From the NCBI RefSeq assembly GCF_030013595.1, contig NZ_CP122768.1: a stretch of 64,000 nucleotides of DNA; one strand, given 5' to 3'. Shown here one piece after another: positions 10,428-51,524 of the stretch. Below the pieces are notes generated by a model. That model did no database searches and was not told where the DNA came from. It saw only the letters and a list, made by a program, of their open reading frames with translations. Position 1 is the stretch's first letter; each line of letters opens with the position of its first letter. Source of the stretch: Escherichia coli. Lineage in GTDB: Bacteria; Pseudomonadota; Gammaproteobacteria; Enterobacterales; Enterobacteriaceae. A program made the position numbers and the translations under genes.

Positions 10428-12250
10428 ACAGTCTGATTTCCCTGCGGGTTGATCGGTAAAATAAGGGTGAAGGTTGCGCCGTAGCCCGGCAAACTGGCGA
10501 CGCGAATATCACCCTGATGGGCATTAATGATGCGTTGACTTAACGCCAGACCAAGCCCGGTTCCTGAGGCTTTGGTGGTGAAAAAGGGATCGAAGATCTT
10601 TTTTTGCAGCGAGAGATCAATGCCACAGCCGTTGTCCTCTATCGAAATGGCCTGTTGTGAGTCGCTGTATTGCCAGGTTTGAATGCGAATTTTCCCTCGT
10701 GCGCTGATAGCCTGGACGGCATTGATCAGGATATTCAGTAGTACCTGTTTGAGCAGTTCACGATCGGCGTTAATCGGGTTTAATTCATTATCCAGTTCGC
10801 TTATGAAGTCGACCCGCGCTTGTACGCCGGCGGTTTGTACCAGTACCAGAGTTTCTTCAACCAATGCATTGAGACTGACTTGTTGCCATTGACTGTGGCG
10901 TGGACGTGAAAATTCGAGCAATTGCTGAATAACTTTGTTAATTGAATCGATTTCTTTGAGTACTACGGACAGATATTCCTGATGTATTAGGTCGCTGGTT
11001 TGTTGGCGCAAGATCTGTACATAACCACGAATAGCCGTTAGCGGATTACGTACTTCATGCGCGACGCCAGCCATCAGCTCACCCAGTGTAGCGAGGCGTT
11101 CTGCTTGCGCCATGCGGCGCTGGGTTTCTTTGCGGGCAGTTAAATCAGAGAAAATCACCAAAGCACCTATCATTTCACCATGCGTGTTATGAATACGACT
11201 GGTAGTGACACTGAGTTCAATGGTGCGGTCACGGCCTGGAAAACTGATCTCCAGCGCCACATGTTCGGTGCCATGTTCCAGCGTATCCAGTACGGGACTG
11301 TAGAACTGAGTATTGTCGAATAACATGGAGTAAGGCTGCCCTACCAGTTCATGACGTTGATAGCCAGTGATGACTTCTGCTGCCGGGTTCATGGTGGTTA
11401 CATCACCCTGGCGGTCAATGGCAATGACGCCATCGGCAGCGTTTTCAATAATCAGATCGTTAAGTGTCCGCGTTTCACGCAGTGCCTGGGCGAGGTTGTT
11501 AACACTCTGACTGATTTGCCCCATTTCACCGGGCAATTGTGGTAATCGAGTGGGAATATTTTGCGCCAGAGTCGAGAGGCCATCGGTGATGATATCAATA
11601 TTGGCGCTCAGGCGACGGGAGAAAAGGACAATCAACAGCAGGCTTATCAGCAAACCGGCGGTGAGCACAATGATAATCCTCACATCCATTTTCCAGGCCT
11701 GGCGGCGAATATCTTCGGTTAATTCATTGGCCCAGATATAGCCGAGGATTTCACCATTACGCTCAATGGGGATCATTGAATTCAAAATATCGCCGCGCAC
11801 CTGCCTGCCTGAATAAACCAAAGGGGTATTTGTACGCATGACTTCGCGACCAGGATGATCTGCGGCAATGGTAACGCCGACATTATTTTGATATAGCGCT
11901 GAAGGCGCGTAGGTGATTATCGCATCCAGCGTTTTGTTGTAATAACCAGCGCCGATGCCAGGGAAGGCGTGAGTGATATTTTCGGTAATGGGGGCAAGTT
12001 CTGCATTTAATGCGCGGATACGCTCCTCACGTGGTAAGTCGATGTAGAGATCATAGCGATCGCCTAGTGCCTGATTAAGCAGGTTGACCACGGCAGAAAG
12101 TTTTTTCTCTTTTTCAGATAAGACTGCTGAACGTCCTTCCGTTTCTACGATATAACCAATAGTAAGCGTTGGGACAATGACCATCAGGATTGCCATCAGG
12201 ATCATTTGATTGCGTAAGCGGCGTGGATAAATCCACTTCATATAATGCAT
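10424..12250 (-). CDS. atoS: sensor histidine kinase AtoS
   Basis: Carries HAMP and PAS domains, an H-box (AGVAHEVRNPL) and an HATPase domain. I placed the start at MHYMKWIYP (608 aa) rather than the first Met of the ORF track. It overlaps atoC by 4 nt. Confidence 0.9.
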   Translation of the reverse strand: MHYMKWIYPRRLRNQMILMAILMVIVPTLTIGYIVETEGRSAVLSEKEKKLSAVVNLLNQALGDRYDLYIDLPREERIRALNAELAPITENITHAFPGIGAGYYNKTLDAIITYAPSALYQNNVGVTIAADHPGREVMRTNTPLVYSGRQVRGDILNSMIPIERNGEILGYIWANELTEDIRRQAWKMDVRIIIVLTAGLLISLLLIVLFSRRLSANIDIITDGLSTLAQNIPTRLPQLPGEMGQISQSVNNLAQALRETRTLNDLIIENAADGVIAIDRQGDVTTMNPAAEVITGYQRHELVGQPYSMLFDNTQFYSPVLDTLEHGTEHVALEISFPGRDRTIELSVTTSRIHNTHGEMIGALVIFSDLTARKETQRRMAQAERLATLGELMAGVAHEVRNPLTAIRGYVQILRQQTSDLIHQEYLSVVLKEIDSINKVIQQLLEFSRPRHSQWQQVSLNALVEETLVLVQTAGVQARVDFISELDNELNPINADRELLKQVLLNILINAVQAISARGKIRIQTWQYSDSQQAISIEDNGCGIDLSLQKKIFDPFFTTKASGTGLGLALSQRIINAHQGDIRVASLPGYGATFTLILPINPQGNQTV

Positions 12251-43873: not shown

Positions 43874-43933
43874 TAACAGACAATAAACAGGCCGTGATGT
43901 GTCGCGGTCTGTTTATCGAATTAAATGCAGATA

Positions 43934-43966
43934 TAAAAAAACCAACCTTTACGGTTGGTTTTTTTG
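43934..43966 (-). terminator. hairpin terminator, probably the ancestral proL terminator now separated from proL by the island
   Basis: AAAAAAACCAACC-tttac-GGTTGGTTTTTTT sits immediately outside the distal island junction. Read on the minus strand it is a canonical stem followed by a T-run. Confidence 0.6.
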
Positions 43967-43972
43967 GGATTT

Positions 43973-43995
43973 TTGGTCACGAGAGTATTCAAAAC
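43973..43995. repeat. distal att remnant (degenerate copy of the proL 3' end)
   Basis: TTGGTC---ACGAGAGTATTCAAAAC here compares with TTGGTCGGCACGAGAGGATTTGAACC at 54171-54196. GATTT(TT)GGTC is shared at both junctions. Confidence 0.6.
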
Positions 43996-44046
43996 ACGCC
44001 AATAACCTCTTGATTCAATTGAAGTCGAAAATTTTAAGTCAAAAAT

Positions 44047-44072
44047 CGTATAGCTTAACGTGTAGCTAAAAA
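44047..44072. repeat. 26-nt direct repeat (candidate integrase arm-type site), distal copy
   Basis: CGTATAGCTTAACGTGTAGCTAAAAA differs by 1 nt from CGTATAGCTAAACGTGTAGCTAAAAA at 54028-54053. Confidence 0.6.
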
Positions 44073-44622
44073 TGTTTGCTGCAAAAGTATACAATTTTAA
44101 CCGTTATGACTCCCTGTTATCCGTTATCAAGCTGGTGGATGATCATGGATAACCCGTTATGGGAATCCCCATATCGGCATCAGGCCCATGCCATAACAAA
44201 AACCCCATATTCGTGGGTTTTCTGTGTTGTGGCTATTCTGCCGTTGCCGTGCTGGTGGATATTTCCGGTATGTGGCTCACCATATCGGCATCACGCCCAC
44301 CAGCGCGACGCATTTTTTTAATTTCGCGGGTGTAAAAATTTGACGGGGCGGGCGGTCCTATAAGCAATGGGGGGTAGGGATTTCGATCCCCCCTCCTGAA
44401 TGCAATTTTCCGTATGTGGCTGTGCGGCAATCATACTCGTCACATGTTTTTGACAATAAAAGGCCCGACCGTGAGACTCACAAACAAAAAAGTTACGGAG
44501 AAACAGGGGATCGGGCTCGGTTGCCGCTAAATCTATTCAATTAAAAGAAGATGTCAATAGGGAAAACGAAAAAAAACAATGCTGATATTGTCATAATTTG
44601 AACAAAACCACTATATGTAGTT

Positions 44623-44853
44623 TTAGTTCATGAGGTTAGTCGCTACCAGATGCGTCAATAGTTTTTTGCTATTAATAATCCCTCTTTTTCCATCGGGAGC
44701 TTTGCACTTGTCACTACCTGGTAACTCCTGGTGGCGTTCCTGTTGCAGCACAACGGAAACAGGCGCTGAACACCTGTTAATTTTGCTTGCAGGTTGTTTG
44801 ATTTCGGCAATGCTGCGGATCATCTCCAGCATATCGGCTTCGGTGATGGTCAT
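44623..44853 (-). CDS. hypothetical small protein (76 aa)
   Basis: The ORF is preceded by an AAGGTG Shine-Dalgarno 6 nt from the ATG. I recognise no family, and it lies in an otherwise ORF-poor region. Confidence 0.35.
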   Translation of the reverse strand: MTITEADMLEMIRSIAEIKQPASKINRCSAPVSVVLQQERHQELPGSDKCKAPDGKRGIINSKKLLTHLVATNLMN

Positions 44854-44884
44854 GATTTACACCTTAGGAAATCTTAGGGGCTGG

Positions 44885-45142
44885 TTGACACTTTCCGGCT
44901 TAAGACCTTAACAAATCTTAACATCGCAGGTTGACACACTTGACACTTTTTCGCGAAAAACCTTATCAAACCTTAGCATTTCTAAGCATGGCAACTTGAC
45001 ACTTTTCGCGATTTTTTCGGCTTTTTGACGTGGTAAATCTGGCGCAAAGCCAGTAACGGCGGGGTTTACAGCGAGGTTGACACTTTTTCGCGTTCAGAGT
45101 GTAAAGTGTCAACCTGGCAAGCTGCTCAACTTGACACTTTTT
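44885..45142. repeat. iteron array TTGACACTTT(TT)CGCG (at least 6 direct copies plus 1 inverted)
   Basis: Copies start at 44885, 44931, 44940, 44996, 45077 and 45131, with one inverted copy at 45103-45112. They are interspersed with CCTTA(G/A/T) repeats and lie between the Nu1-like gene and the 76-aa ORF. Confidence 0.8.
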
Positions 45143-45146
45143 GAGG

Positions 45147-45674
45147 TCATTGATGGCCTGATTTTTCCCACTCAGCCAGGGCGTTTAGTCCGGCTTCACT
45201 CCAGTTATCCAGCTCATCGGGACAATCACCTGCAACATAGCAGAGCTCACAACGCAGCATACGAATTGCCAGCCTGGCATTTTCCCGAAAATCATACTGC
45301 TCAAAGTAATATTGCCCAGCATAATCCTCAAGGCAGATAGCACCATCATCAAGAAATTGCACTTCACAGCATAGTTCCCCGGCTGCATCCTGTACACGCT
45401 GCTGTATGTCATTGTCCGTTACTGGTGCAGGGATTTTACCGTCTCTGGCCTTAACTGCTTTCCAGAACTCGCCCCACGTCATTTCCAGCGTTCTCTCTGG
45501 CCACATTTCAGAAACGGTATCTTTTCCCTGTGCTGGTGGGCTGTTCCGCTGCTCTGTCGCTTCCACATCGATTTTTTTACCGGACATGACCACTTCGCCT
45601 TTCTCGATCCAGTCGTAAACTGTCTGGCGGCTTACGCCTTTGTGTTTGGCATATTCTGCCTTGCTCATAAACAT
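45147..45674 (-). CDS. protein with a lambda Nu1 (small terminase)-like N-terminal HTH; candidate packaging-specificity factor
   Basis: 175 aa. The N-terminus SKAEYAKHKGVSRQTVYDWIEKGEV resembles lambda Nu1 NKKQLADIFGASIRTIQNWQEQGMPV. The rest is unrecognised and Cys-rich. A good Shine-Dalgarno (GAGGGGAAG) precedes the start. Confidence 0.55.
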   Translation of the reverse strand: MFMSKAEYAKHKGVSRQTVYDWIEKGEVVMSGKKIDVEATEQRNSPPAQGKDTVSEMWPERTLEMTWGEFWKAVKARDGKIPAPVTDNDIQQRVQDAAGELCCEVQFLDDGAICLEDYAGQYYFEQYDFRENARLAIRMLRCELCYVAGDCPDELDNWSEAGLNALAEWEKSGHQ

Positions 45675-45844
45675 GACACTTCCCCTCAGACTGTATTAAT
45701 GCGCCGGAAAGCGCGTGTATTTAAATCATCCCAGGAACCGTTGAGCACCAATTAGTTGCGCGAAGTAATCGGCACCAGCGTTCCGAACAATTTCCAACTT
45801 AACGTTCTGATCATTGTTTCCTGCTGCAGGGACAATCCCACGAT

Positions 45845-46498
45845 TCATAGCCAGCGCCCGGATATTTCTTCCAGTTTTTCCAGAGCTGGCTTGCAGGCCG
45901 CATCAATAACTTCACGGACCATTCCGGCGAGCTGTTCTTCTTCTGTCGGCGTTGTTACTTCCACACCTGATGGTTTCCCGCCCTTATCCCATACGCCCAA
46001 CGGTACGAGCGCAACGTGATCGATAAGAAATGGCGTACCCTCAATGAAAAAATTGTCCTCGCCCATTACATCAGGAACTTCTGCCCCACCGGACGCACCA
46101 CAAAACACAACCGACGGGCTGGTGGATACCTCCCCCCGTGCTTTCTGGATGTAATCGATGATTTCCTGCCCGTAAATCCGGCATACGCCCCACACCTCGT
46201 CACCGCGAATATACGGCAACATGACGGTGCCAATAATGCGCGACCGTTCGCCCACGTCTTCAAGGGTTTTGCTTTCGGGATGGTCGATAATGACGGGTAC
46301 TCCGGCGCAACGTTCCAGGAACTGCGGATTGAGATAAGTTTGCGGTGAACGCCAGACAAATTCTTTTTCTTCGGCGCGATAGGCCATTCCGGTTCCTGTG
46401 ATACGCAGGTTAATCAGCCACATGTTGGAAAACTGATAAGGCGACGGTAGCTGACCGTCCCGAATCTGCTTTGCCGCCTCAATTTCTGTTAAAAGCAT
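45845..46498 (-). CDS. DUF2213-like protein (phage scaffold/prohead-protease-like family)
   Basis: 217 aa. The motifs GVPVIIDHPES, IGTV and IDHVALVPLGVWDKGG follow the pattern I remember for DUF2213. This has not been verified by HMM. Confidence 0.5.
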   Translation of the reverse strand: MLLTEIEAAKQIRDGQLPSPYQFSNMWLINLRITGTGMAYRAEEKEFVWRSPQTYLNPQFLERCAGVPVIIDHPESKTLEDVGERSRIIGTVMLPYIRGDEVWGVCRIYGQEIIDYIQKARGEVSTSPSVVFCGASGGAEVPDVMGEDNFFIEGTPFLIDHVALVPLGVWDKGGKPSGVEVTTPTEEEQLAGMVREVIDAACKPALEKLEEISGRWL

Positions 46499-46562
46499 AA
46501 TGTCCCCCGGTTATAAGCAATAAGCCCCACCAAATCCGGCAGGGCTGAAATCAGCACGTTTT

Positions 46563-47147
46563 TCATGCCCCCGCGAGGCTTGCAACGTTAATTTTAACCA
46601 GGCGACGGGGAGGGATTTTGAAAGCACTAAGCCAGTTATTCGGATCCCCCTGATATTCAGTAATCCGCCGTCCGGCTTCATCCATTCTTACGGTTTTACG
46701 CAAATAGCCCGGCGTATTTTCCACAGCCCACTGAACACTGTCTTTTGCAGCCTGGTAAATCTGATCTTCCAGCACCGCCAGCGTTGCAGAATCTGAAACG
46801 GAACGAATATCCACATCACTGAATTTTTTAGCCAGCTTCTGTGCACCAATTAATGCACGCTTGCGGTAATCCATCGACTTTTCACCAGCAAACGGGGCTG
46901 GAGCGCGACGGCCCATATTGCTGTATGCGGAATCCGCTTTAGCCTGGGCTTCTGCCAGTGAGGATTCATCTTCGACTGACGCGACGATGTTTTTATTCGC
47001 GTCATCCTCGTCCGCTTTTGTGAAATCCTGTGCGGGGATCGCATTCAGAATTTCGATAATCTCCTGCGGAGTGCTGCCCTGCGACTCTGACAGAGCGTTA
47101 ACCACCTCCATCAGTTTTAATCGCAAATCTTCTTTGCTTGCTGGCAT
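46563..47147 (-). CDS. hypothetical protein (194 aa) with an acidic N-terminal half
   Basis: The ORF has a GAGAGG Shine-Dalgarno before the ATG at 47147; the ORF track begins 9 nt earlier at a GTG. I recognise no family. It lies immediately upstream of the DUF2213-like gene. Confidence 0.5.
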   Translation of the reverse strand: MPASKEDLRLKLMEVVNALSESQGSTPQEIIEILNAIPAQDFTKADEDDANKNIVASVEDESSLAEAQAKADSAYSNMGRRAPAPFAGEKSMDYRKRALIGAQKLAKKFSDVDIRSVSDSATLAVLEDQIYQAAKDSVQWAVENTPGYLRKTVRMDEAGRRITEYQGDPNNWLSAFKIPPRRLVKINVASLAGA

Positions 47148-47186
47148 TTTTACCACCTCTCTTTTTTCACCAAAAAATCACGACCA

Positions 47187-47360
47187 TCAGGCCGGACGTT
47201 CTACGGGATAAAGCGCCCGCTGCATTAAACGCCGGGCGACCTCATGAATGCTCGGAGCAATCCCCAGCGGAGAATTGCGGCGTTCCTCGTCCTGGATGCG
47301 CTGTAATGCTTCAATCTGATCACGAGCGAGTAAAACGGGTTTCACGCTGGCTTTTCTCAT
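47187..47360 (-). CDS. hypothetical small protein (57 aa)
   Basis: An AGGAG Shine-Dalgarno lies 8 nt before the ATG at 47360; alternative ATGs are at 47366 and 47384. It is the first ORF after the tandem terminators. Confidence 0.45.
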   Translation of the reverse strand: MRKASVKPVLLARDQIEALQRIQDEERRNSPLGIAPSIHEVARRLMQRALYPVERPA

Positions 47361-47486
47361 AGTCATATCTCCTGAACAAAACAATGATTATGATTGCACA
47401 AACTGAAATAACGATCTACATCATTGCAATTTATGAAACAATAACGCATGATGATCGCGTTCTTCCCATTGACTTCAATCACCTGA

Positions 47487-47525
47487 AAAACAAAGCCCGC
47501 AACACTTCTGGCTGCGGGTTTTTTA
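47487..47525. terminator. hairpin with T-runs on both strands
   Basis: A CCCGCA-N11-TGCGGG hairpin is followed by TTTTTT on the plus strand and by TTTGTTTTT on the minus strand. Confidence 0.55.
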
Positions 47526-47531
47526 CTGGCA

Positions 47532-47557
47532 CAAAAAAGCCGGGAAAAATCCCGGCC
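47532..47557 (-). terminator. rho-independent terminator after the PerC-like gene
   Basis: The minus strand reads GCCGGGA-tttt-TCCCGGC followed by TTTTTT, 5 nt after the stop codon. Confidence 0.75.
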
Positions 47558-47561
47558 TCCG

Positions 47562-47849
47562 TCACTGACTGCAATTTTTCGATCCAGGGTATTTCCTGAA
47601 TGCCTTACCATTGGGCTGATGTAATCCCATCCCGGCATGTGCCCGGCTGATGGTTTCGCGCATTTCCCCGAAATTATCCTGCCTTGCTGGTGGGCGTGCT
47701 GCCTTGCGGATACATTCCGCGCGACGTTTTGCCGCCTGTTCCCGTGCCTTGTCATCATTCGCCAGCATGATGACCTCAGCCCACCGCGCCGCCGCTCTCC
47801 GGTACAGACCACGCGCTTCCAGTGCTTCCGCTTTGCTGTCGTGAATCAT
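47562..47849 (-). CDS. PerC/Pch-like transcriptional regulator
   Basis: 95 aa. The N-terminal AEALEARGLYRRAAARWAEV matches the PerC-family signature as I recall it. Its start overlaps the upstream gene's stop by 4 nt. Confidence 0.55.
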   Translation of the reverse strand: MIHDSKAEALEARGLYRRAAARWAEVIMLANDDKAREQAAKRRAECIRKAARPPARQDNFGEMRETISRAHAGMGLHQPNGKAFRKYPGSKNCSQ

Positions 47850-48388
47850 GCGCCTGTTTTCTCCTTTGCTGCCCGGCGCTGACGTTTGCGCTTCTCATTC
47901 AGCGCCACCAGCCGCGTTTCTGCGTCCTGTTGTTCCTGTGGTGTCACCTCGCCGCACGGCTGGCCTTTCAGGTCGTAGCGTACCCCACCAGCCATTAAGG
48001 CGCGGTAATAGCGCGGACACTGCGCATAAGATGCCAGCGTCGCACGCAATGCCCCTGGACCGAATGCCAGCCCCCTGACGGCGAGATCCTGCATCAGGTC
48101 GTCGAATATCCCCACCTTAAGCGGCTTCGGTGCTTCCCGGCTGAATAATTCAGGCCACAACTCAGTGAGGCGGTTAACGCGCCTGCGGTTTTTGCGCTGG
48201 CGTTTGGTCATATGCCGCCACGGTGTCGCCCCTGTGGGCTTCTGCTGCGCTTTCTGGTTACCGGGCATCACTTTATGCGCCGATGTGGTTTTATCCTGCT
48301 CCTGCGCCGCCTGCGTCGTTTTCTGCGGCGTGCCGTAAATGCCTTTCGGTTTTCTGTTAATGGTCAGCTTAGTCATGCTTTGCCCCAT
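47846..48388 (-). CDS. FinO/ProQ-domain RNA-binding protein
   Basis: 180 aa. KPLKVGIFDDL ... LRATLASYAQCPRYYRAL..GGVRYDLKGQPCGEV aligns with E. coli ProQ RPLKIGIFQDL ... [35 protein letters not shown]. Both the N- and C-terminal tails are basic. Confidence 0.8.
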   Translation of the reverse strand: MGQSMTKLTINRKPKGIYGTPQKTTQAAQEQDKTTSAHKVMPGNQKAQQKPTGATPWRHMTKRQRKNRRRVNRLTELWPELFSREAPKPLKVGIFDDLMQDLAVRGLAFGPGALRATLASYAQCPRYYRALMAGGVRYDLKGQPCGEVTPQEQQDAETRLVALNEKRKRQRRAAKEKTGA

Positions 48389-48537
48389 CGTTTTTACTGG
48401 TTGCTACGTTGCCCAACGGCACTGACACAACATTCTGTTTTCATTTTTAACATTCCTGATTTTTTAATTCCTCACCTGCTGCACAGTGAAAATTTATGAA
48501 GTTAATAACAATATGATTTTAAATGTATTTTTAAGTA

Positions 48538-48856
48538 CTCACTTTTTAATCCTTATATATACGCAAAAGTGAGGTAAATAGTTAAGTTTTAGTTAATATC
48601 TTGCATGGTGTGTTTTTTAACCTACCTGTTATTTTTATTACCTCATTTCTATTAACTCACCATTCCTCACTTTTGTTCCTCACTTTTTATTATTCTTGTT
48701 CTGCTCCTCAGTCGTTTTCTTTATTGTTGTAATCTGTTGTTTTGCAATGTGTTTTTAACTCCTCACTTTTTGACCTATATACAGGTGAGAAAGTGAGGAG
48801 TGGCGTTGATTTTTTGTTAAATTACCCGCCATCCTCACTTTTGCTCCTCACTTTTT
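48538..48856. repeat. iteron array CCTCACTTTT(T) in AT-rich DNA: candidate island replication origin
   Basis: Direct copies lie at 48538, 48665, 48678, 48761, 48833 and 48846. Inverted copies lie at 48565-48574 and 48789-48800, and there are degenerate copies as well. The array is immediately downstream of the helicase gene. Confidence 0.75.
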
Positions 48857-50270
48857 ACAGTGGGCGCACATAATCACCGTCAATAGCGATTACGCCGTCG
48901 CTTTCCAGCTTGTACAGCCAGCGCCGGAAGTGTTTCATCTCATACCCCAGCTTTTTCATATCATCGCGGAGAAGGGCGATAGTGCACGCCTCCCCGTGTG
49001 CTGTTCGCGTTCTGATGCACTGCCATAGCGCAGCGTGATTTTCCGTCTTGTTCCCGGCCTCCTCGATGCGTTCCAGTTCAACAGGTGGGCGCGGCTTATC
49101 CACAACCACCAGCGACGTGATTAACTCCCCGTCAGTGTCGGTAAAAAGCTCCACCACGCGTAAATCATATGCAGCCTCTTTCAGTTCCTCCGCGTCCTTC
49201 ATTTTGGTGCAGGAGATAACCAGGGCTTCACTGTCCGCACCTTCACGGCGAATACGGTATTCAGCGTCCAGAGATGCACGAAATGCACTGGAACCACGCG
49301 CCCCTTTTGTTTCATCCTTGCCGGAATGGTGAACCACCAGTACCGTGGCCCCTGTGCGTCGTTTCAGTTCGTCACATCCACGGATAAACGCCCCCATATC
49401 CCGCGCGTCATTTTCATCATTACCGCCAAAGCAACGCGCCAGCGTATCCAGAATAATCATGCGTACCGGTTTACCCGTTTCCCGTTCAACCTGACGGGAA
49501 GCGATGACCATTTCATCAACATCAAGCGGGACCGCCGGAAAAATCGGGCGGTTTACCAGGTACAGATTTTTCACCCGTTCATCATTAACGATTTCCCATG
49601 CTTTGATACGACGAGGAACACCGATCCCGCCCTCACCAACGACATACATAACCGCACCATGTACAACCCTGCGACCTCCCCAGTGGCGACCAGTGGCAAC
49701 ATGACACGCCCAGGAACACGCGAGGAACGATTTATAGGAACCGCTCGCGCCGTATGTGCTGCACAACGAATTAGCCGGAATCACGCCCTTAACGACATAA
49801 TCAAGCTGTGTGTCGTATCCTGCAGATCCAATACTCATTGGTAGCGTGGTTTTTCGCTGGCTGTATTGCTCGTCAGTAAGTATTTCCCCGCGCTCTGCCT
49901 GTTCGCGGATCCGTTGCAGGTAGTCGTGCCAGTTCTCCAGCTTCTGGCTGTGCATTCCCTCAGGGTAATAATTCGCATCCCGTACACCTGCCGCCGCCAG
50001 TTTTTGCCCGATGGCATTAATATTTGACGGCTTGATGTGGCCTGCCTTGTACAGCCGGACACAATAGCGACCATCGTCGATAATTTTCAGGTCTGCCAGT
50101 TCGTCAAGCTGGCTGTCTCCCAGCCATACAGGCGGAACATTGTCGCCAGCAAGTCGCCCGTCCTGTTCCTGCCATTGTTTCGCGTGCGCCCAGGCATCAC
50201 TACCCGCAAAAATAATGACTTCGGTCATTTTGTCGTGTGGCTGTTTTTTTAAGTTCGGTGCCAGTTTCAT
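48855..50270 (-). CDS. RepA/AAA_25-type replicative helicase-like initiator
   Basis: 471 aa with a RecA-fold core: Walker A-like GASGSYKS, Walker B MIILD and an HHSGK motif. The C-terminus is wHTH-like. It is translationally coupled to the upstream ORF. Confidence 0.7.
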   Translation of the reverse strand: MKLAPNLKKQPHDKMTEVIIFAGSDAWAHAKQWQEQDGRLAGDNVPPVWLGDSQLDELADLKIIDDGRYCVRLYKAGHIKPSNINAIGQKLAAAGVRDANYYPEGMHSQKLENWHDYLQRIREQAERGEILTDEQYSQRKTTLPMSIGSAGYDTQLDYVVKGVIPANSLCSTYGASGSYKSFLACSWACHVATGRHWGGRRVVHGAVMYVVGEGGIGVPRRIKAWEIVNDERVKNLYLVNRPIFPAVPLDVDEMVIASRQVERETGKPVRMIILDTLARCFGGNDENDARDMGAFIRGCDELKRRTGATVLVVHHSGKDETKGARGSSAFRASLDAEYRIRREGADSEALVISCTKMKDAEELKEAAYDLRVVELFTDTDGELITSLVVVDKPRPPVELERIEEAGNKTENHAALWQCIRTRTAHGEACTIALLRDDMKKLGYEMKHFRRWLYKLESDGVIAIDGDYVRPL

Positions 50271-50566
50271 TTTGTGCCCCTGAATGCGTTAATCATGTTT
50301 TTCATTTTCTGAATATTTGCCCGTGCCTTTGCGTTGCTGGTGGGCTGTTTGCGTGGTGTGGCCTGTATCAGTGAAAAATCACGCCGGAACTGATAAACAG
50401 GCATCACGCAGTCGTAGCTGTACCCATCACGGCGGTAAGTAACGCACCGTCCGGCAATACTTTTAATCGTTACCGTGCCGCCGTAGTTATCCCGGAAAAT
50501 ATCGCCGGGGCGGATTTCAGGCCGAGGGAGACCACTGGCAGTAAAGCCAGAATTTTTCTTTTTCAT
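50267..50566 (-). CDS. hypothetical protein (99 aa)
   Basis: The ORF overlaps the rep start by 4 nt. I could not confidently recognise a family. Confidence 0.5.
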   Translation of the reverse strand: MKKKNSGFTASGLPRPEIRPGDIFRDNYGGTVTIKSIAGRCVTYRRDGYSYDCVMPVYQFRRDFSLIQATPRKQPTSNAKARANIQKMKNMINAFRGTK

Positions 50567-50570
50567 GGTT

Positions 50571-50771
50571 TTATTTTCCTGTCAGCAGTTCCGGTTTTAT
50601 TTCCGCACGAATACAGAGTTCAGAAAAAAATTCAGGAGAACCAACAATCTCATTACTTTTCAGTCGGCATTGTGATTTCACTTTCCCTTTATCCAGGTAA
50701 ACCAGTATGCGTCCGGTGAAATCATCTGGCACACTCAGGGTAATTGTCATTGTTGCTTGCTGATTATCCAT
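50571..50771 (-). CDS. hypothetical protein carrying one copy of the FTG(R/Q) module (66 aa)
   Basis: It shares the pattern FTGRILVYLDKGKV...VGSPEFFSEL with both halves of the upstream 121-aa protein. Confidence 0.5.
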   Translation of the reverse strand: MDNQQATMTITLSVPDDFTGRILVYLDKGKVKSQCRLKSNEIVGSPEFFSELCIRAEIKPELLTGK

Positions 50772-51129
50772 GATTCACCCCCTGAATAACCTGATAACCG
50801 CAACTGGTCAGCAATTCGATAAATTCCGGCAGTGTTCCGAAACAGCAATCATCTCGCAGCCGTTCTCGGGATACTTCAACGCCGTTTTCGTAGTGACTCA
50901 CCATGCGTCCGGTAAAATGCAGATCATCATCGTGATGGCTCGTTAACGGCTTAATCAGTCGCGCACGTTCTGCCAGCTCCAGCAATGCTTCAACGCTTCC
51001 GGCAATTGCACCATCCGGCAGGTGATAATTACTTGCCACGCGTCCATTCTCCACGTTAACCAGTAGCTGCCCGGTGAATTTCTCATCAAACTGAATGCTG
51101 TTAAGGTCAGAAATTGACAGGTTAATCAT
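50764..51129 (-). CDS. hypothetical protein carrying two tandem copies of the FTG(R/Q) module (121 aa)
   Basis: Internal duplication: FTGQLLVNVENGRV...AGSVEALLEL and FTGRMVSHYENGVEV...FGTLPEFIEL. It overlaps both neighbouring genes by 8 nt. Confidence 0.55.
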   Translation of the reverse strand: MINLSISDLNSIQFDEKFTGQLLVNVENGRVASNYHLPDGAIAGSVEALLELAERARLIKPLTSHHDDDLHFTGRMVSHYENGVEVSRERLRDDCCFGTLPEFIELLTSCGYQVIQGVNHG

Positions 51130-51325
51130 GGCGTACCTCCTGGCGAATACGGGCAGCGAATACCATCACGCAGCCATCAGGAGATTGCTGACGCGCTTCC
51201 TGTTCGCTGGTGGCCTCAATGGTAATCACGCGCGGTTGTGCCGTGCTCAGGGCGATAAAACGCCAGATGTATTTATTCAGGTTGTGCGAGTCCCGCCCTT
51301 GCGGGTGTGTGGTATGATTTCTCAT
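51122..51325 (-). CDS. Icd-like small protein (67 aa)
   Basis: This is the 3' third of the 286-aa ORF-track entry, starting at MRNHTTHPQGRDSH. The segment YIWRFIALS...IEATSEQEARQQSP.GCVMVFAARIRQE resembles proteins annotated as host cell division inhibitor Icd-like in satellite islands. That match is from memory only. Confidence 0.5.
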   Translation of the reverse strand: MRNHTTHPQGRDSHNLNKYIWRFIALSTAQPRVITIEATSEQEARQQSPDGCVMVFAARIRQEVRHD

Positions 51326-51422
51326 AGCTACCTCGATACTCTTTCTATCGTTGGTGGTTAGAAGCCCCGTTACTGCTCCAACAGTGCGGGGTTTCGTCGT
51401 TTCTGTGCCTTGCATTAACAAG

Positions 51423-51504
51423 GTGTAAGACACAATGTAAAATACAAGTGTCTTACACGTCAAGCCTTCAAAATAATTTTTTTTCGTGTATATTGTCTTA
51501 CACC
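51423..51504. promoter_or_regulatory. operator-like repeats in the divergent control region
   Basis: GTGTAAGACAC (51423-51433) and its exact inverted copy GTGTCTTACAC (51448-51458) are joined by a third copy, GTCTTACACC (51495-51504). They lie between the Icd-like operon and the plus-strand RHH-like gene. Confidence 0.6.
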
Positions 51505-51524
51505 AACAACATAAGGAGTTAGAC

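Follow-up and report, generated by a model that had tools for sequence, protein, structure and literature searches.

A probable TerS-type DNA-binding protein and an adjoining site array in the terS/rpp slot of an Escherichia coli satellite island

To our knowledge, Rpp is the sole mechanism described so far by which Gram-negative cos-type phage-inducible chromosomal islands (PICIs) take over the packaging of their helper phages, and the helpers concerned are lambda-like. In pac-type staphylococcal PICIs, the small terminase TerS_S of the Staphylococcus aureus pathogenicity islands (SaPIs) is found together with a SaPI pac site (PMC6092414). The SatelliteFinder PICI model assigns the slot that rpp holds to a terS homolog, and accessory genes follow terS/pac in PICIs (PMC10085698). 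Here, we analyzed the gene of a 175-amino-acid (aa) protein in a 64,000-nucleotide (nt) stretch of E. coli contig NZ_CP122768.1 (assembly GCF_030013595.1), the whole of which is referred to as the window. The gene occupies this slot in a PICI-type satellite of ~10 kb (positions 44057 to 54053), its product joins a winged helix-turn-helix (HTH) of the small-terminase type to an orphan C-terminal domain, and a conserved array of short sites lies directly behind it. We favor, at a probability of roughly 40%, the reading that gene and array form a satellite module, in which a TerS-derived DNA binder and its array in cis would mark satellite DNA for the helper terminase. It is probably a packaging-hijack module of a new kind that lies outside the known Rpp family.

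A TerS-type DNA-binding domain joined to an orphan domain

The N-terminal winged HTH of the 175-aa protein shares homology with the domain by which Nu1-type small terminases bind DNA and, judging from the alignments, was inherited from one of them. PHROG 57 ("terminase small subunit") matched residues 1 to 42 with an E value of 5.4e-7, and tblastn aligned residues 3 to 40 at 45 to 47% identity to the Nu1-type TerS of Serratia phage BZS1 and Citrobacter phage phiNP, with nothing outside these residues matched among 50,697 phage records. Moreover, hhalign against the BZS1/phiNP TerS clade gave 96.9% probability and an E value of 1.4e-10 over 39 columns, with the wing included. Pfam returned only HTH_17 over residues 3 to 28, below threshold (20.8 bits versus a cutoff of 27), NCBIfam TIGR01764 scored 17.7 versus a cutoff of 28.8, and Pfam Phage_Nu1 did not match the protein. 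Neither Nu1 nor RppC (6hn7_A) was reached in the PDB at E values of ≤10, either by the single sequence (phmmer) or by the family profile (hmmsearch). The HTH belongs to the MerR/Xis/AlpA superfamily, and its recognition helix, VSRQTVYxW, is invariant across the family; in Enterobacter proteins that are 34% identical overall, the first 40 residues, including this helix, are nearly unchanged. An earlier note, made from the sequence alone, had recognized a Nu1-like HTH in the first ~30 residues and no terminase-like features thereafter. The resemblance in fact reaches residue ~42, where the alignments to TerS end, and the predicted fold of the remainder is not that of a terminase. Assignment to an unrelated regulator family by profile searches, which that note had named as a refuting outcome, was not obtained with Pfam or NCBIfam.

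AlphaFold2 on an alignment of 37 sequences (predicted local distance difference test [pLDDT], 88.6) predicted a winged HTH at residues 1 to 42, a disordered linker (pLDDT of <50 at residues 45 to 54), and a compact alpha/beta domain. Modeled alone, the C-terminal domain reached a pLDDT of 94 and a predicted template modeling score of 0.87. It had no match among solved or viral structures, the BFVD search returning nothing at E values of ≤1e-3; a weak PDB match to an Fe-S protein (E value of 0.1) was rejected as noise. When 1.84 billion proteins were searched exhaustively with a hidden Markov model of the C-terminal domain, 34 cluster representatives were recovered, almost all of which share the architecture of the 175-aa protein; the other remote relatives are a few versions that are short or differ at the N terminus, and their contexts gave no information. 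The peptides that had been quoted from the translation (SKAEYAKHKGVSRQTVYDWIEKGEV, CCEVQF, CLEDY, and CELCYVAGDCPDE) were all found in it, and the window copy is indeed Cys-rich, with six cysteines. As a feature of the family, Cys-richness did not hold: C145 is conserved in 34 of 37 sequences and C151 in 17, while each of the remaining four occurs in 1 to 4. Because C145 is the sole conserved residue among the six, a metal or disulfide motif is unsupported, a zinc or redox motif in the tail was ruled out, and the Cys-richness of this copy appears to be lineage noise rather than a functional trait.

Judging from its conservation, the 175-codon open reading frame (ORF) is a real gene under selection. 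The ORF recorded in the earlier note stood, except for its orientation: it lies on the minus strand, and the plus-strand frame over the same interval is riddled with stops. The start, MFMSK, is preceded by a Shine-Dalgarno sequence (GAGGGG), and homologs keep M(L/F)MSK. A word-indexed search of a 5.8-billion-protein database, with 100 candidates, gave 68 homologs at E values of ≤1e-3 and ~31 to 98% identity, with Escherichia, Citrobacter, Pantoea, Rouxiella, Serratia, Enterobacter, and Raoultella as the genera represented. Nearly all are labeled "hypothetical protein"; one UniRef entry is called "Repressor" and one RefSeq copy "MerR family transcriptional regulator," both of which are automatic annotations. 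The gene and its array were present in 166 of 5,426 complete E. coli genomes, at no more than four places per genome and always on the chromosome; there, the "MerR family" label is the single exception to an annotation as "hypothetical." E. coli carriers of the family include O104:H4 HUSEC2011, the asymptomatic bacteriuria strain 83972, and porcine enterotoxigenic E. coli, and the family extends to at least eight other genera. The literature searched held neither a mention of the family's RefSeq accessions nor a description of a PICI protein of this kind, and PADLOC gave no meaningful defense-system match.

Slot, site array, and cos

EcCICFT073 was located in the genome of CFT073, where it comprises int, alpA, an Icd-like gene, DUF4222, a primase gene, PerC, capsid and decoration homologs, cos1-rppA-cos2, a small ORF, and att. 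Its RppA is a 144-aa ORF, assigned by its length, its place after cos1, and the published description (PMC6739421). The 175-aa gene stands in the same position, after PerC and capsid-related genes and before a homologous small ORF and att. This small ORF, of 76 codons in the window, shares its N terminus with the 93-aa ORF that follows rppA in EcCICFT073; therefore, the 175-aa gene occupies the rpp slot. The first ~45 residues of the 76-codon ORF also match a 59-aa ORF of the PICI of E. coli 83972. Because its tail differs from that of the conserved small PICI gene, it looks frameshifted, and it had no family matches. Four E. coli PICIs, the window island and three others, keep the 175-aa gene in the slot; their replication and capsid modules differ, and the module was found beside three different replication modules. 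The enterobacterial PICIs in which the family fills the rpp slot form a set distinct from those with rpp.

The array behind the gene contains six exact copies of TTGACACTT, at 44885, 44940, 44996, 45077, 45104 (inverted), and 45131, plus a seventh site, TTGACAC, at 44930. The spacings are 27, 27, 81, 56, and 55 bp, the span is 260 bp, and the first site lies 5 nt past the stop codon; for TTGACACTT, six occurrences compare with 0.44 expected in the 64-kb window. Among 23 loci fetched, which encode full-length or near full-length relatives, most have the core AAAAGTGT(C/A)AAC 2 to 8 times within 300 to 650 bp 3' of the gene, and in most the downstream copies are nearly all of the occurrences in the 20-kb locus. 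When 9-mers were counted without bias in 10 nonredundant downstream regions from different genera, AAAGTGTCA and AAGTGTCAA ranked at the top, in 9 of 10 loci; the array motif was the sole 9-mer common to that many regions. The array thus travels with the gene, whatever replication, capsid-remodeling, or cargo genes surround the pair. From this arrangement, the 175-aa protein most likely binds the adjoining array, and the conservation of the motif across genera fits the invariant recognition helix; as helix and site are both invariant, covariation between them allowed no test. The motif has no copy in phiP27, the presumed helper, or in EcCICFT073.

Several other interpretations of the array were tried and rejected. 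It does not represent tandem sigma-70 promoters, as no -10 elements accompany its sites, nor a replication origin, as a separate origin, with iterons unlike the array sites, follows the helicase gene and the module occurs with three different replicons. A structured-RNA check against Rfam matched no family, and no terminator was found 3' of the 175-aa gene. The palindrome CTGGCTTTGCGCCAG in the 81-bp gap was discarded as a hidden cosN because it is not conserved in the 83972 island. In addition, copies of another phased motif, TAAGxxxTxxTAAGG, lie in alternation with the GTGTCAA sites (44860 to 45000 in the window; 10780 to 11180 in locus L006); this motif was seen only in E. coli, Escherichia ruysiae, and Enterobacter arrays, with none in other genera.

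A blastn search with the 1.07-kb noncoding tail of the island against phages matched the annotated cos of the Stx2e phage phiP27 (E value of 1e-13), as well as the genome ends of Burkholderia phi1026b-like phages. In phiP27, cos sits between the genes of an HNH endonuclease and a Terminase_4 (P27-family) TerS, which has no similarity to the 175-aa protein and no Nu1-like domain. The HK97 small terminase binds an A/T-rich stretch ~15 to 29 bp from the cut (PMC11331095). Since 44 nt covering cosN and the TerS site are identical to phiP27, the island is a cos-type PICI for a phiP27/HK97-like helper, and its cos should, on this identity, be recognized directly by the helper TerS. Lambda cosN and P2 cos were rejected as the island cos: GGGCGGCGACCT, the lambda cosN, does not occur within one mismatch in the window, P2 cos is absent, and the 170 bp upstream of the 175-aa gene hold no cos.

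In the PICIs of E. coli 83972, HUSEC2011, and APEC E19019, gene and array are kept, while lambda, P27, and P2 cos are absent. No stretch of ≥28 nt in the 83972 island matched a phage cos region, and megablast linked the island to phages through a primase gene alone. Thus, in these sister islands without a recognizable cos, the module is the only visible packaging determinant, and cos is not coupled to gene and array. Defense-like cargo follows the module in the sister PICIs: an AAA ATPase plus DUF4435 in HUSEC2011 (locus L050, 8703 to 10659), a methyltransferase plus DUF262 plus a HEPN-like nuclease in APEC E19019 (L051, 7367 to 10465), and an "RNA-binding domain" protein in 83972 (L049, 8480 to 10468).

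The satellite island

The element is a PICI-type satellite (Table 1) flanked by yejO and tRNA-Pro/yejM. It shows a size of ~10 kb, an integrase, an alpA-type regulator, a helicase with an iteron origin, late genes in one direction, att repeats, and a helper-type cos. The 16-nt att-like repeat is the only exact repeat of ≥11 nt between 43874 to 45147 and 53900 to 54400, and its integrase-side copy lies ~120 bp past the 3' end of tRNA-Pro(GGG), outside the tRNA itself. All of the island genes are on the minus strand and follow the gene order of EcCICFT073, encoding, in turn, the integrase, an AlpA-like HTH protein, an Icd-like ORF, DUF4222, a RepA-type helicase, ProQ/FinO, PerC, a 65-aa ORF, the 197-aa protein, the DUF2213 protein, and the 175-aa protein. 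A near-identical island is annotated in ETEC6335. Because that island has a shorter Icd-like gene, the 286-codon GTG-start ORF at 51122 to 51982 (minus strand), in which the Icd-like domain covers only the last ~45 residues, is probably overextended. No terL, tail, or lysis genes were found among the ORFs between the att repeats, in agreement with the earlier statement that the island encodes no large terminase.

Upstream of the 175-aa gene, the 197-aa protein corresponds to the C-terminal half and the 217-aa protein to the N-terminal half of PHROG 6216 (545 aa), and there was a weak match to the head maturation protease PHROG 530. Their genes are, from these matches, probably capsid protease- or scaffold-like remodeling genes, and the pair may be a split capsid protease/scaffold for capsid remodeling. 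Between cos and att, there are direct repeats of ~35 nt at 44154 to 44188 and 44265 to 44299 (core, CCATATCGGCATC) and a second pair at 44121 to 44140 and 44241 to 44260, and EcCICFT073 and the 83972 PICI carry similar GATGCCGATAT elements close to their att ends. The repeats at 44121 to 44299 may be integrase arm-type sites.

Table 1. Features of the island and of the 175-aa gene, with positions in the window
Feature	Position	Strand	Remarks
175-aa gene	45147..45674	minus	175-codon ORF with translation; final core gene of the satellite late operon, terS/rpp slot
Winged HTH, codons 1-42	45549..45674	minus	Homolog of the DNA-binding domain in Nu1-type TerS
Linker, codons ~43-58	45501..45548	minus	Variable, predicted disordered; length and sequence vary in the alignment
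Orphan alpha/beta domain, codons ~59-175	45150..45500	minus	Predicted topology b-a-a-b-b-b-a-b-a
Probable binding-site array	44885..45142	minus	Consensus AAAAGTGTCAAC on the gene strand; from repeat families and motif count
76-codon ORF	44623..44853	minus	Diverged or frameshifted copy of the small gene conserved after the rpp/terS slot
phiP27/HK97-type cos	44315..44396	minus	44 nt identical to phiP27: cosN and downstream A-tract
att-like direct repeat AACGTGTAGCTAAAAA, distal end	44057..44072		16 nt
att-like repeat, second copy	54038..54053		Between int and tRNA-Pro(GGG) (54172-54248)
Upstream late genes	45845..47156	minus	197-aa (46563-47156) and 217-aa DUF2213 (45845-46498); DUF2213 E 2.2e-6
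AT-rich replication origin	48440..48860		CCTCACTTTT iterons (≥9 copies, both orientations); immediately 3' of the RepA-type helicase gene
RepA-type helicase gene	48855..50270	minus	AAA_25 E 2e-44
Integrase (52721-53962) and AlpA-like HTH (51987-52193)	51987..53962	minus	Proximal end; NCBIfam PRK09692 E 2.8e-168; ETEC6335 annotation

Candidate roles of the module and comparison with described systems

The TerS ancestry of the DNA-binding domain, the position in the terS/rpp slot, and the array that travels with the gene together favor a packaging-recognition module. As proposed here, the only targets of the winged HTH in the island and the presumed helper would be the AAAAGTGTCAAC sites downstream of the gene that encodes it, and several copies bound at a spacing of ~27/55 bp would build a nucleoprotein complex that tags the satellite DNA. 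The C-terminal alpha/beta domain would then contact a packaging protein of the helper, whether the large terminase, the P27-type small terminase, or the HNH endonuclease, so that packaging of the satellite would be favored and that of the helper possibly penalized; both the partner of this domain and the effect on packaging are speculative. In the window island, the cut would be made at the phiP27/HK97-type cos 480 to 830 bp downstream, while in the sister islands without a recognizable cos, the array itself could be the packaging (pac-like) site. A broader form of this proposal, in which a Nu1-derived domain plus an orphan adaptor would make up a portable satellite packaging system that recruits the terminases of unrelated helpers (HK97/P27-type and others) to the array as a pac- or cosB-like site, is more doubtful. 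If it were true, the cos-less PICIs of 83972, HUSEC2011, and APEC E19019 could still be packaged and would outcompete the helper. As a packaging determinant, the module would explain how these often defense-carrying islands move, and it would provide a new orphan protein domain as well as a compact protein-plus-site pair for engineered transducing particles.

Several observations weigh against such a packaging role. The C-terminal domain is unlike any terminase oligomerization or TerL-binding domain, and the HTH fold is also used by excisionases and regulators. The array is not beside cosN: the two are 480 to 830 bp apart in the window island, in E. ruysiae (locus L012), cos is 3.2 kb beyond the gene, with ~2.9 kb between it and the last array site, and in L030, L032, and L034, it is found on the other side of the gene, 3 to 5 kb upstream. 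With a complete helper-type cos and the TerS site of the helper already in place, the window island has no obvious need of an additional specificity factor. Moreover, L017 (Serratia oryzae) and L020 (Erwinia tracheiphila) have no array despite an intact DNA-binding domain, and L029 has a single site; decay of the islands may account for L017 and L020, as may action of the protein in trans on a copy elsewhere.

The earlier note had regarded the protein as a possible Rpp analog. Part of this was borne out, as the element is a PICI, the gene is in the rppA slot, and a TerS-type HTH is followed by a nonterminase C terminus. In its strict form, the idea requires that the protein pair with the DNA-binding domain of the helper TerS and that the heterocomplex leave the phage cosB for a satellite cosB, i.e., the array. 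The shared slot and the 47% identity of the winged HTH to the DNA-binding domain of the Nu1-type TerS clade would permit mimicry as in RppC-TerS (PMC6739421). However, hhalign aligned the family to the Rpp family over just 28 HTH columns at 52% probability, the helical dimerization/TerS-clamping domain is absent from the model, whose C-terminal fold differs, and no lambda- or BZS1-type cosN lies beside the array. The island cos, moreover, is of the phiP27/HK97 type and keeps the helper TerS site, and the Terminase_4 TerS that goes with it has no Nu1-like domain for pairing. The strict Rpp mechanism is thus unlikely for the helper implied by the island cos, and we consider it quite improbable overall.

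Alternatively, the protein could be a transcriptional or architectural regulator, with the array controlling the downstream small ORF and the cargo or insulating the 3' end of the island from read-through, and with no direct part in packaging. The superfamily of its HTH serves many regulators, the RefSeq and UniRef labels cited above agree with such a role, the array sits between the gene and the conserved small ORF plus cargo, and no terminator follows the gene. Yet 6 to 8 sites over 260 to 650 bp without a recognizable promoter would be an odd operator, EcCICFT073 has the small ORF but no such array, the nearest relatives of the DNA-binding domain are terminases rather than regulators, and the supporting names were assigned automatically. 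We regard this role as unlikely, although it deserves to be taken seriously; if it is the only one, the finding would be of local interest. Rep-iteron and Par-centromere modules likewise consist of a gene next to direct repeats, and the protein might accordingly serve another DNA transaction, such as directing excision in the manner of Xis/Cox, acting at a second origin, or partitioning the excised circle as plasmids do. These roles are less likely because att is distant (810 to 1,090 bp from the array to the att core, with kilobases of cargo between them in other islands), the helicase-plus-iteron origin is separate, and an AlpA-type protein is already present. Together with the retention of the module alongside three different replication modules and the lack of a partition NTPase in the island, this makes such functions very improbable.

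Compared with the described systems, the protein resembles Rpp (RppA/B/C, EcCICFT073; PMC6739421; PDB 6HN7) in being PICI encoded in the same late-operon slot, in its size of about 145 to 175 aa, in combining an N-terminal small-terminase/MerR-type winged HTH, the type by which Rpp mimics the TerS DNA-binding domain, with a nonterminase C terminus, and in the absence of terL from the island. It differs in that the similarity covers ~25 to 28 HTH residues only (blastp to CFT073 RppA, 10 of 25 identities, all within the HTH), and, as far as the alignments reach, it is not an Rpp homolog beyond this segment. The Rpp C terminus consists of three helices that form a coiled-coil dimer clamping TerS, whereas that of the 175-aa protein is predicted to be a compact alpha/beta domain. 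Furthermore, rppA lies directly behind a lambda-type cosN and an island-specific cosB, whereas the 175-aa gene precedes a multisite array and a phiP27/HK97-type cos.

With the Nu1-type TerS (lambda gpNu1, BZS1, and phiNP), the protein shares a homologous DNA-binding domain, including the wing, and several short sites near the gene, comparable to the R sites of lambda cosB (PMC9026076). In contrast to these terminases, it has no homology past residue ~42, no self-association (oligomerization) or gpA/TerL-binding region, and no adjacent terL, and its sites are 3' of the gene instead of between cosN and the gene. P2 Cox and phage Xis are winged-HTH proteins that polymerize on direct-repeat arrays. 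They are single-domain proteins of ~55 to 90 aa acting at att or early promoters, whereas the 175-aa protein has an extra 115-aa domain and its sites lie ~1 kb or more from att with no evident promoter; these features, the sub-threshold profile scores, and a distance of at least 810 bp between sites and att repeat set it apart from the excisionase/AlpA/MerR HTH_17 proteins. As with SaPI TerS, a satellite-encoded, here putative, specificity protein is accompanied by a cis site; the two close the packaging operon and are followed by accessory genes. SaPI TerS is, however, a full phage TerS homolog, while the 175-aa protein shares the DNA-binding domain alone with any TerS. Although these features place it in neither family, the module would, by analogy, resemble Rpp or SaPI TerS in purpose.
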